DNA of 64,000 nt. Source: Nitrosopumilaceae archaeon (GTDB lineage Archaea; Thermoproteota; Nitrososphaeria; Nitrososphaerales; Nitrosopumilaceae). A model generated the notes under the pieces. It made no database searches. It saw only the letters and a list, made by a program, of their open reading frames with translations, and was not told where the DNA came from. The stretch covers positions 1,248,001-1,312,000 of the forward strand of contig OZ242376.1 in assembly GCA_965209085.1 (NCBI GenBank). The letters are read 5' to 3'. The position numbers and the translations under genes are program-made. This document shows, one piece after another, positions 51,455 through 54,486 of the stretch (position 1 is the stretch's first letter; every line of letters starts with the position of its first letter).

Positions 51455-51529
51455 GTACAAAATCATCACTTGTGCCATCTTTACCCACATTTTCATTTAT
51501 TGTGTAAATTCTAGGCACAACGGGACATC
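51455..51529 (+). repeat. short dispersed repeat family B, copy 1 (degenerate)
   Basis: Aligns over ~75 bp with the reverse complement of 54720-54796. Confidence 0.8.
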
Positions 51530-51567
51530 TAAAAAATATATAGATGGTATAAAGTAAAAGTATCAAG

Positions 51568-51660
51568 ATGACATCAGAGCAGGATAAAAAACTAGACGAG
51601 GCAATGGACAAAGTACTAGACAGGTATCATATGGTATTTGAAAGATTATCTAAAATGTAA
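51568..51660 (+). CDS. 30-aa putative minimal antitoxin of a Doc/Fic toxin (not in ORF track)
   Basis: MTSEQDKKLDEAMDKVLDRYHMVFERLSKM*; TAATG overlap with the doc-like ORF. Confidence 0.55.
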   Translation: MTSEQDKKLDEAMDKVLDRYHMVFERLSKM

Positions 51661-51841
51661 TGTCACCTAATTTTATTATTTCAATTCATAAAAAAATCCA
51701 AAAACGTTTTTCGATTACTGCAGGTATAATGAGTCATGGGAATTTACAAAATGTTGCAGATATGCCAGACAGATATGTTAATGGTGTGGAACAATTTGAT
51801 ACAGTATTCAAAAAAGCTGCATCCTTGACCGAATCTATTAT
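51660..51841 (+). pseudogene. Fic/Doc family toxin, truncated by IS3 insertion before the catalytic HPF motif
   Basis: IISIHKKI...GI...GNL....P......F..VFKKAASL..SII, then the IS3 terminus. Confidence 0.75.
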
Positions 51842-51915
51842 TGGTGCGGACCCCTGTACAATGAGGTGGTATGTACGAAAAAATCAAAAAGCCCTCAAAC
51901 CACGAAAAAGACAAT

Positions 51916-51993
51916 AGACCTCATACATAATCATTAAAATCAGTCATTTTTATTCGTAAAAATTGTGAATTTGGTCCATTATGCATGAAGTCT
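51916..51993 (+). mobile_element. 78-bp MITE family A, copy 1
   Basis: TIRs AGACCTCATACATAAT / ATTATGCATGAAGTCT; 3-bp TSD AAT. Confidence 0.88.
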
Positions 51994-51994
51994 A

Positions 51995-52987
51995 ATGATG
52001 TACACGGCAATGGATTTGAGTCAAAAATCAATACAGATCGCCGCTAGAAACAGCCAGGGAAAATTTGTTAAAGAATGTAAAATTGATAAAAATGCAAACT
52101 TGTTGTTAGATGTTCTAAAAGGATTGGGCAAGAAAAACACCATAAAGATTGTCATGGAGTCCAGATATAATCACCAGTATCCATACAAACTGTTGCGTGA
52201 ACTTGGATACGATGCTATCATAGCACAACCGTTTATGGTAAAGGCCATTGCATATGCTAAAGTTAAAACCGATAAAGTAGACGCAAGAATGCTAGCAAAC
52301 CTGCTTGCAGCAGAATTGATTCCAGAGGCATATATTCCTGAAACAGAAATTCAGGATTTACGTGATCTGGTTAGAAGTAGACTTGGACTTGTACGTGAAC
52401 GTGTTCATAAAAACAAGATAAAAGCAGATTTAGCAAAAAGATGGATAACAATTAACGTGTCAACCCAAATGATTCTTGGGCAAAAATGCTTACGAGAATT
52501 AAACATATGGTCAATAAACGATTAACTAAACGTTATTTCGTTCCTAAATGACAGGATTTACCAATTGGATCTTCGAATACGTAAAAAAGCAGAAAATAAC
52601 AAATATGCCAAGATTCTCATGACCATACTGGGAATATCATACTATTCGGCACTTTCTATATCCGCAGAGATTGCAGACATTGACAGATTTGAAAACCATG
52701 AACACTTGTGTTCATATGCACGATTGGTTCCAAGAGTGTATCAATCTAGGGAAAAGCTAAAGATGTGTGCTGCAGGAAAACGTGGAAGTCAAATACTCAG
52801 CTGGATGACTGTACAATGCATGTTTGTTCACATAAAAAATTGTCCAAATTCGGCAATTACCATACACTACAACAAGATAGCGGAAAGACGCAACAAGTCA
52901 AAGGTAAAGATCGCAGCGGCTAGAAAGATGATGAAAATCATCCATGTAATGCTAAAAGAAAACACATCTTTTAGACACGATGGATAA
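51995..52987 (+). pseudogene. IS110 DEDD recombinase with one in-frame stop (52523-52525)
   Basis: AMDL, VMES, KTDKVDA, SYARL.P..YQS, AAARK; both ORF pieces are in the same frame. Confidence 0.9.
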
Positions 52988-52989
52988 GT

Positions 52990-53198
52990 GGACGGCATAG
53001 AGGCTCATAACGTTCTTGCACTATGAGTGCGTGAATGAGGTTGGGTCCATAATGCCGCATAAGCGAAAACCACGGTGCGTTTGGAACGCGAATAGTAGTA
53101 TGCGATCCATCTGATTCAAAACCACACAATGTGGAGGACGACATCTAGCGAAAGATATGCACCGTTTTAAATAAAACATGTCAAGTTTAATAACAAAG
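52990..53198 (+). ncRNA. candidate bridge/seek RNA of the IS1111-group element
   Basis: Non-coding right end with several stems (CGGCAT/ATGCCG, CTCATA/TATGAG, CGGTGC/GCACCG, CCACA/TGTGG). Confidence 0.55.
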
Positions 53199-54486
53199 GA
53201 TTATGTCGTACATTGTAGAACGATTTTTGCATTAAAAATGATAGGATCGGAGGGTTCATTTTATCATTGCCCTCCATGCGGTGCCAAATTCTGATGGCGT
53301 CGCGTACCCTATTGCAGAGTGTACTTGGTTCTGATTGTAATCCTCAAAGGCGTATGATATTGCAGCCTCTGCGTCCTGGAACGTCTCAAAGTCGCGCGGC
53401 CAGACATACTCTTTCTTGAGACTCTTGTGGAAAGATTCCACATGAGCATTTTGCTCTGGTGTATGATAGTGGATGAATTCTTACCTCACACCGTATGCTT
53501 TTACAGTCTTGCCAAATTGCGCTGAAATATACTGGGAGCCGTTGTCGGTTCTTAAAACAAGCTTTGAGCAGTCCGGTTTTTTGGATGCCAAAGCTTCAGT
53601 TAATGCTGCAATTGCACCGTCGGTAATAGCTCTTGACTCAAACGCATATCCGACCCATTCGCGGGTAAATGCATCAAGGATGTTAAACAGATAACATCAT
53701 CTGTCCTGACCGCACCAAATGTACGTCATGTTAGCTTGCCAGAGCTGATCAGGTCCTGCAAGTTTTGGTTGTTTTCTGGAGCGTATGATCTCTTTTTTGG
53801 GTTTTGCAGGCACATTCTAGCCCAAATAATGATATATTTTCTTCACTTTTTTGCAGTTTACAGGTTTACCTGTAATGCGAGATATGATGGCGACCATTCT
53901 TCGTGTTCCATATGTGAGTCTGTTTTGAGCAACCTACGGTACCATCTTTGATATTTCCTTGTCGATTTGGATGTGCGTGGTTTTTTGATGGCATACAGTC
54001 TCTTGTTGGACGCTCCAGCATAGCGTGCGGATTTGCGAAGACTCAAACCTTGCTCCTGCATGAGTGTAACAGATTTCATTTTATATTCCACAGTAACGTT
54101 TTTTTTTAAAATATCATTGACGATGGTCAGATCACCAATGAGCTTTTTGAGGGATTCATTTTCACTTGTAAGCGTCTTGACTGCATTGTCTCTGGGCTTG
54201 CCTGAAAGAGCAGCTTTGCAGGATTCAATGAATGATTCACTCCAACGACTGAACGTTATCTGACTGATGTTGTGTCTACGGCACAGCTCTGCGGGGGTAA
54301 TGCGTGTGTTTATTGACTCCATGATGATACGTACTTTTTCATCTGGCGCACGATGGGGGTTTTTCATTGACAAATCCACTCCCGAGGGGGTAAAATTTGT
54401 AATACTTGAAGTGCTCTCCTTTTATGGGGTCCACTCCAAGATCAAGTCACATAAACTATATATCGTGTTTACCAATTAACTATCAT

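Follow-up and report, generated by a model that had tools for sequence, protein, structure and literature searches.

Does the roughly 210-nt non-coding right end of an insertion sequence in an archaeal genome encode the RNA that directs its recombinase? The question arises from an original prediction made within a window of 64,000 nt (the whole stretch of DNA analysed here), according to which this right end specifies a guide RNA with short matches to the element's own target and donor. The host genome (G000; 1.69 Mb in a single contig) encodes an archaeal AmoA (E = 4.5e-119) and therefore belongs to an ammonia-oxidising archaeon. RNA-guided recombinases of the IS110 family are under development as genome-writing tools, and most of the characterised examples are bacterial. 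Our analysis leads us to conclude, with high confidence, that the right end is the guide RNA of an IS1111-type, RNA-guided DEDD recombinase of the IS110 family, running from about 52988 to about 53111 and possibly as far as a T-run at 53165-68. The features on which this reading is built are collected in Table 1.

Table 1. Features of the element, its target site, its predicted guide RNA and its sister copies (positions are those of the window).
Feature	Positions	Strand	Basis or remark
IS110-family (IS1111-type) insertion sequence, 1351 bp	51866-53216	+	Comparison with empty sites; both recombinase domains; NF033542
Left target half: outer part of IS3-family terminal repeat (TGGTGCGGACCCCTGTACAATG) and left AG (51864-65)	51842-51865	+	8/8 uninterrupted copies
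Left end: extension GTGGT (51866-70, 5 nt), then subterminal inverted repeat ATGTACGA (51871-78)	51866-51878	+	Read from sequence
Repeat of ~83 bp at original start codon of recombinase gene	51916-51998		Missing from two other left-end copies
Recombinase pseudogene	51995-52987	+	PF01548 (E 9.9e-18), PF02371 (E 4.8e-13)
Two-loop guide RNA core (target-binding and candidate donor-binding loop)	52982-53111	+	Model R3 hit
Target-binding loop: stem GGCTCA (53002-07)/TGGGTC (53042-47), internal loop, distal hairpin GCACT-ATG-AGTGC (53018-30)	53002-53047	+	Consensus fold
5' guide AACGTTCT	53009-53016	+	Position tracks right flank in sister copies and relatives
3' guide AATGAGGT	53034-53041	+	Equals 51860-67: left target AATG, core AG, element's first 2 nt
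Candidate donor-binding loop; hairpin at 53077-89	53057-53103	+	R3 alignment to relatives
Third structured stretch, hairpin CCACA-CAA-TGTGG	53104-53168	+	Consensus fold of 4 copies
Right end: subterminal inverted repeat TCGTACAT (53206-13), TGT extension (53214-16, 3 nt), AG core copy (53217-18)	53206-53218	+	Read from sequence
Right target half (AG AACGATTTTTGCATTAAAAATG), running on into IS3-family element	53217-53240	+	Genome copies
Sister copy c688			92% identical; 5'-truncated
Sister copy c1529			72% identical; truncated, frameshifted
Sister copy c496			70% identical; solo right end

The element, its target site and its recombinase gene

Uninterrupted copies of the target elsewhere in the genome all read ..GTACAATG-AG-AACG.. 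(8/8; in longer form ..CCCTGTACAATG-AG-AACG.., and also ..CCCTGTACAATGAGAACG..), and comparison with these empty sites places the last base of the left flank at 51865 and the right boundary at 53216, and identifies AG as the core dinucleotide, which is duplicated at the two junctions. The first base of the element is therefore 51866, 6 nt to the right of where the original prediction had set it. Both flanks, to the left of 51865 and to the right of 53217, belong to the end of an IS3-family element with multiple copies. Another IS3 copy carries, at exactly this point, a second, independent insertion of which the left end alone survives, indicating site specificity. With the eight empty sites, this second insertion and AG at both junctions, insertion is sequence- and orientation-specific with a shared core dinucleotide, and what the locus presents is one insertion sequence that inserts itself into the terminal repeat of another.

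The IS3-family host of the insertion retains fragmentary open reading frames only, with rve_3 in 61 aa (53256-53441) and HTH_Tnp_1 (53858-54379); these fragments span 53256-54379 on the minus strand, in the stretch 53217-54400 to the right of the insertion. About 20 related IS3-family ends occur in the genome, which is overall very rich in insertion sequences.

The subterminal inverted repeats are 8 bp long and are inset by 5 nt on the left and 3 nt on the right, in keeping with the short extensions and the 7-17 bp described for the IS1111 group (PMC11208160). Excluding an inserted repeat, the non-coding ends measure 48 nt on the left and 229 nt on the right, which is the IS1111-type layout as described in PMC11187229 and PMC11208160, with the longer non-coding stretch downstream of the recombinase gene. 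This left end recurs in two further copies in the genome. Two fragments of the element's left end (G000:C1:1228889-1228757 and 683979-683849, both on the minus strand) break at one internal point, corresponding to about window position 52056, after ..AGAAACAGCC, with unrelated sequence beyond it. A search for sequencing runs that contain the stretch listed no RNA run. Contigs from three sequencing runs contained no junction of right end, AG and left end such as a circle would have, and held only forms already in the genome, namely empty IS3 ends, the 92% sister copy and left ends without the 83-bp repeat.

Translated through its stop codon, the recombinase gene gives 330 residues in which both expected domains are present, the N-terminal DEDD/RuvC-like domain (PF01548) and the C-terminal Transposase_20 domain (PF02371), and the protein scores 183.8 bits against NF033542, 'IS110 family RNA-guided transposase', for which the cut-off is 140. 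Its best solved relative is the IS621 transposase (E = 9e-6), and the closest recombinases outside this genome are about 36% identical. A search by recombinase homology found no related loci in genome contigs and yielded two weak, unusable fragments in metagenome contigs.

The window copy of the gene is damaged at several points. An in-frame TAA occurs at 52523-25, where the 92% sister copy has Ser, and the conserved G..P....S(G) motif reads ..LVPRVYQSR.., that is, Ser-Arg in the place of the catalytic Ser-Gly; since Ser-Gly is retained in c688 and c1529, Ser-Arg looks like decay of the window copy and not a property of the lineage. The repeat of about 83 bp at the original start codon is a secondary insertion that does not form part of the ancestral element. 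Because the gene is interrupted by a stop codon, altered in its Ser-Gly motif and disrupted at its start by an insertion, and because all four subfamily copies in the genome are defective, the three others being truncated, the window copy is most likely a relic that is no longer active.

The 83-bp repeat is partly self-complementary, has more than 40 copies in the genome (for example C1:728168-728256, 662375-662460 and 160008-160098) and at other sites is frequently located about 85 nt ahead of other IS110-like recombinase genes (for example near 260161, 694809, 157565 and 290385). The repeat could be either a miniature mobile element or a site that these IS110-like elements prefer as target. 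Other IS110-like subfamilies of G000 carry an in-frame stop common to all their copies: the same TAA is found in three copies of 'is2', 97-99% identical (G000:C1:856657-857640, 1172332-1173315 and 666533-668350), and the same TGA in two copies of 'is3' (G000:C1:476820-477800 and 963279-964535), as would follow either from spread after breakage or from stop readthrough. A different right-end motif (..GTAACTGCGG.. and ..GGATGAAGA.TGG..) is common to 'is2' and to L037, L059 and L084 of genome G336, which together make up another IS1111-like subfamily present in two genomes, and this motif is probably that subfamily's own guide RNA.

Guide segments and fold of the target-binding loop

The three motifs singled out by the original prediction lie where it had placed them, CGTTCT at 53011-16, AATGAGGT at 53034-41 and GGGTCC at 53043-48, enclosed by an outer stem CGGCAT (52993-98)/ATGCCG (53052-57) of which 4 of 6 pairs are kept across all copies. 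CGTTCT is indeed the reverse complement of AGAACG, the core plus right target. The identity of AATGAGGT with 51860-67 also stands, but what had been called the element's left end is the left target and core, and only the final GT belongs to the element: AATGAG (53034-39) corresponds to left target AATG and core AG, and the following GT to the first two bases of the element. Counted in this way, the left guide of the window copy matches 4 of the 6 bases before the core, and 8 contiguous bases with the core and the two element bases included. Two segments complementary to opposite target strands, overlapping at the core, are thereby found on the two sides of an internal loop, which is the arrangement of bridge RNAs and seekRNAs. 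Their strand arrangement had been judged not clearly canonical; it is in fact the order published for IS1111 seekRNAs, in which the 5' segment complements the top strand and the 3' segment the bottom strand, with an overlap between them in the target (PMC11187229).

The caution that such short matches might be due to chance proved well placed for unanchored 6-mers, of which 8 were seen between the right end and the 22 nt on either side of the target site, against 6.3 +- 3.1 expected (960 of 3000 shuffles reach 8), but not for the pair anchored at the core. CGTTCT and AATGAG each occur a single time in the 1351-nt element, and both guides, in this order and within 60 nt, were recovered in only 9 of 20000 dinucleotide shuffles of the right end. 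Because unanchored 6-mer matches are at chance level, the match of GGGTCC to GGACCC carries no weight, and the proposal that GGGTCC is the left-target guide was rejected: its bases form the 3' half of the conserved basal stem and read GAACTT in c1529 and c496, where the partners change in step.

In the consensus fold of the four genome copies, the guides occupy opposite strands of an internal loop situated between the basal stem, GGCTCA/TGGGTC extended by GGCA/TGCC, and the distal hairpin. Across the four copies 96.4% of the cells of this fold are paired, compared with 26-49% when the partners are slid, and three pairs have changed on both sides. A shuffle control says little when applied to only four sequences (87/500); with six sequences, the stem and hairpin are 95.5% paired versus 85.4 +- 3.0 in shuffles (0/500), and four pairs have changed on both sides. 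The original prediction had placed CGTTCT in the loop of a CTCATA/TATGAG hairpin, and this inner hairpin was rejected, given that 75% of its cells are paired across the four copies against 94-100% for the internal-loop fold. Taken as a whole, the right end does not fold unusually well (z = -1.64), and the mean column identity among the copies is 85%. In Rfam, no relevant family matched 51500-53600 at E values as high as 10, and none reached its gathering score anywhere in the window.

The right end has three further copies in the same genome, and these four are the only known members of the subfamily, in two lineages. A nhmmer search of the genome with the four-copy profile returned the four copies only, and a DNA search with the right end in 100 relatives yielded its own four copies and a 19-nt chance match. 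On the right, the four copies are flanked by AG followed by AACGAT, AACCAT, GACCTC and AATTTT, and their 5' guides are, respectively, AACGTTCT, AACGTTCT, TAGGTTCT and TAAGTTCT, so that contiguous pairing from the core extends over 6, 5, 7 and 7 nt, the last two each including one G:U pair. One column of the 5' guide has C, C, G and A opposite G, C, C and T of the right flank, so that three copies form Watson-Crick pairs, each of a different kind, and one has a mismatch. Copies c1529 and c496 have TTACAG and TCACAG as their 3' guides, which predicts other left targets, and both have lost their left ends. No uninterrupted sites of c1529, c496 or c688 were found in the genome; a genome of the same genus is not collinear at the c496 site and matches only the distal sequence at c1529. 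Within the subfamily, in which only the window copy has a known left flank, covariation is thin, there being four defective copies.

Covariation in the wider RNA family and the second loop

A covariance model of the four genome copies (R1) retrieved nothing beyond them in the genome and only weak hits among 150 genomes of the family, one of which, in G489, was real and was used to seed a second model. This hit is situated 56 nt in from the left end of an IS110-family element that is present twice in G489. The two G489 copies are 92-94% identical overall, and all their differences within a 54-nt stretch of the RNA fall in the two guide segments, each 3' guide matching 9 of 10 positions of its own left flank, AG and first two element bases, with G:U-compatible mismatches. 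The second model, R2, built from six sequences (the four genome copies and the G489 pair), gave 23 places in 10 of 151 genomes, two of which (L106 and L107) turned out to be false on reading. Fifteen places outside G000 and G489 keep the framework with hypervariable guide segments, and the framework was found in eight further genomes. Of 17 loci examined, 11 have a recombinase gene after the RNA and none has it before the RNA, and the ends of these relatives have the same 5-nt and 3-nt geometry and the same AG core.

The two G489 loci, L094 (G489:C2, reverse strand) and L095 (G489:C1), are two copies of one element between which the guide segments have been swapped completely. In both, the left flank fits the 3' guide but the right flank fits the 5' guide poorly (2/6 and 4/6), and one of the two has a 170-nt insertion in its right non-coding region; the flanks may have been exchanged by recombination between the copies.

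The original prediction had proposed guide-target covariation within a covariance model as its test, and this covariation is present in the wider family on both sides of the core. For the left side, junctions were set from the conserved left-end signature and not from the guide. In 16 elements the 3' guide agrees with the 6 nt before the core at a cognate mean of 4.81/6, compared with 2.12/6 for non-cognate combinations, and agreement of at least 5/6 is reached by 10/16 cognate pairs versus 3.7% of 218 non-cognate pairs; L123, L133 and L124 are exceptions, at 3-4 of 6. The guide dinucleotide that follows AG equals the first two bases of the element in 16/16, with five different dinucleotides represented. 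For the right side, ends were found from the inverted repeat, 3 nt and AG in eight relatives and in the four genome copies, a set that omits L121, L122, L124, L126, L127, L131, L133 and L134, for which no right end, or only an ambiguous one, was identified. Here the 5' guide agrees with the 6 nt after the core at 4/6 or better in 10/12 cognate pairs and in 6.5% of 124 non-cognate pairs, the exceptions being one G489 copy (G489a, 2/6) and L123, which scores 0 as parsed and 6/6 after a 1-nt shift.

In L133 (G487:C2:1681230-1683790) and L124 (G503:C1:137900-140470) the 3' guide is of one class and the left flank of the sister class, with a single-base difference; this mismatch could be tolerated, or the guides could have been caught changing. 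At G503:C1:138953-140268 (L121/L124) two family elements, 1.26 kb apart, are nested or fused, and the single right end found there agrees with one element in its second loop and with the other in its target guide.

The relatives also possess a second loop. Its 3' strand is identical to the final 5 nt of the right end followed by AG in 9/9 cases (ATGGG-AG in six, ATGGA-AG in three), and its 5' strand has 6-nt complementarity to the left end in 5/9. As read from their sequences, the RNAs of the relatives are two-loop bridge RNAs. A model built from 11 relatives only (R3), in which one helix is mis-registered by a column (58% paired) and which was used as built, found its best match in the window at 52982-53111 on the plus strand, over the full model length, with 23.6 bits and an E value of 4.4e-5, the next match scoring 9.9 bits; E values of these models are rough. 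The window RNA was itself part of the model by which the relatives had been found, and R3 is therefore independent of it only in its second-loop part. Fold, covariation and this recovery by R3 together support the central proposal of the original prediction, that the right end of roughly 210 nt of an IS1111-type element encodes a guide RNA matching its own target.

In the alignment to R3, window GAATAGTAGT (53090-99) falls on the relatives' GAATGGGAGT, from which it follows that ATAGTAG (53092-98) is the expected copy of the right end plus AG. Compared with the actual right end, ATTGT and AG, it agrees at 6/7 positions, and the sister copies agree at 6/7 and 5/7. On the other strand of the loop, ACCAC (53069-73) complements the left end GTGGT over 5 nt, the core not being covered. 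Pairing in the stems of this second loop reaches only 81-90% across the four copies, and the consensus fold contains a competing long-range stem. From these strands, a match of the window second loop to the donor (right end, core, left end) is probable. The pair CCATCT (53107-12) and CATCTAG (near 53143) had been considered as a donor loop and was dropped, as the relatives point to 53069-73 and 53092-98.

The third structured stretch was not found in the relatives and is specific to the window subfamily. A possible long-range stem, CGGTGC (53073-78)/GCACCG (53159-64), which competes with the hairpin at 53077-89, is followed by the TTTT at 53165-68, a possible 3' end of the RNA.

We postulate that the RNA would be transcribed from the right end and bound by an intact recombinase. 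The two strands of loop 1 would together specify GTACAATG-AG-AACG inside the IS3-family terminal repeat, the 3' guide pairing with the bottom strand, and loop 2 (ACCAC; AUAGUAG) would recognise the junction of right end, AG and left end of the excised circle (..ATTGT-AG-GTGGT..). By analogy with IS621 and ISEc11, the complex of recombinase and RNA would join donor and target and exchange strands at AG.

Alternative readings and known systems

It could be supposed that the first loop alone (about 52988-53060, 73 nt) is the guide, in the manner of a seekRNA that reads only the target, with the rest serving as scaffold, processing signal or terminator and the ends being recognised via the subterminal repeats. 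Such a short form has a precedent in ISEc11, for which an 82-nt seekRNA with target matches only sufficed for movement (PMC11187229), and in the window the second-loop matches are imperfect (6/7 on one strand, 5 nt without the core on the other) and the stems weakly supported. The relatives argue in the other direction, given that their second-loop 7-mer equals right end plus AG in every one of nine cases, in two co-varying variants, and that R3 aligns window GAATAGTAGT to this very strand; moreover, both loops are reported in IS1111-group elements by Durrant et al. (PMC11208160). We therefore regard a guide restricted to the target as unlikely, and the two-loop RNA as the better description of the right end.

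Doubts about whether there is a guide at all are harder to maintain. Chance matches in a structured 3' untranslated or terminator region without any guide role would account for unanchored 6-mers at chance level and for a whole right end whose fold is unremarkable, and they would leave unexplained the anchored pair in canonical order, the guide-flank covariation in 16 and 12 elements relative to non-cognate controls, and the reciprocal homology found with covariance models; this explanation, already disfavoured, we hold to be very improbable. About equally little credence can be given to a role at the DNA level only, in which the conserved sequences would be recombinase-binding sites near the subterminal repeat and their conservation a sign of protein-DNA recognition. 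The region does lie within 230 bp of the right subterminal repeat and is highly conserved among the copies, as the column identity given above indicates. The substitutions, however, preserve base pairs, including strand-specific, G:U-compatible changes from C to T and changes on both sides, and the relatives carry the same module at the opposite end of the element, between left end and gene, and therefore the module is not tied to the DNA of the right end.

The position of the module in the relatives inclines us, by a modest degree, towards a bridge RNA that has been relocated between element ends, lying upstream in most elements of the family and downstream in the window subfamily with RNA homology still detectable. 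Relocation between upstream and downstream positions is the step thought to separate the IS110-type and IS1111-type layouts.

If the two-loop guide RNA is correctly identified, near-identical natural copies with swapped guides would be ready-made archaeal reprogramming pairs. The locus and its relatives would then constitute a documented family of archaeal bridge RNAs from ammonia oxidisers, in which targets, AG core and ends are directly readable, guides are naturally swapped between copies 92-94% identical and the RNA lies at either end of the element. For annotation, the conserved "non-coding" right end would be explained.

The kind of system described here is already known and is not a surprise. 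Surveys predict guide RNAs in most IS110 and IS1111 elements (PMC11208160), a 2026 bioRxiv preprint clusters many more such RNAs, and archaeal IS110 recombinases have already been catalogued. Our literature search found no paper on such RNAs in ammonia-oxidising archaea, and the supplements of Durrant et al. 2024 and of the 2026 preprint may list archaeal members.

The closest parallels are the IS1111 seekRNAs of ISEc11, ISPa11 and ISKpn4 (Siddiquee et al. 2024, PMC11187229), with which the window RNA shares the order of the guide segments and their overlap in the target. As described in the same paper, those elements likewise combine a DEDD recombinase of about 330-350 aa with subterminal inverted repeats and a long non-coding stretch downstream of the gene, their short module measures 70-100 nt (here about 73 nt) and their long form 145-170 nt (here about 125-180 nt), and natural reprogramming occurs between close relatives, as it does here in G489 (PMC11187229). 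The present system differs in its archaeal host, its defective copy and an RNA predicted from sequence, as well as in having no detectable sequence match outside the nitrifier family searched and a recombinase distant from its nearest relative in other genomes.

With the IS621 bridge RNA (Durrant et al. 2024, PMC11208160; structures 8wt6 and others) the window RNA has in common two internal loops, in each of which the two strands would base-pair to opposite strands of the DNA over a 2-nt core; the target would be read by one loop and the donor ends by the other, in the window a candidate donor loop. The recombinases are homologous. Unlike the window RNA, that of IS621 is encoded at the left end, and in each of its loops it is the 5' strand that pairs with the bottom strand (PMC11208160), an order that is reversed here. 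A further difference from IS621 is that the 3' guide here reads 2 nt into the left end of the element, as it does in all 16 family members. The core of IS621 is CT, whereas here it is AG on the coding strand. Insertion at a single fixed site, and in a single orientation, within another transposable element's terminal repeat reportedly has a precedent, from which the present case differs in the host element, here of the IS3 family, and in the organism.

Compared with the archaeal relatives whose RNA lies upstream (G489, G503, G487, G007, G479, G539 and G434), the window element has the same target-loop framework, AG core and end geometry and a homologous second-loop strand, and it differs in that its recombinase is about 30-35% identical to theirs and in the additional third stretch of the window subfamily. 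What is less ordinary in this family is the placement of the RNA, which in the relatives lies between the left end and the recombinase gene and in the window element comes after the gene.
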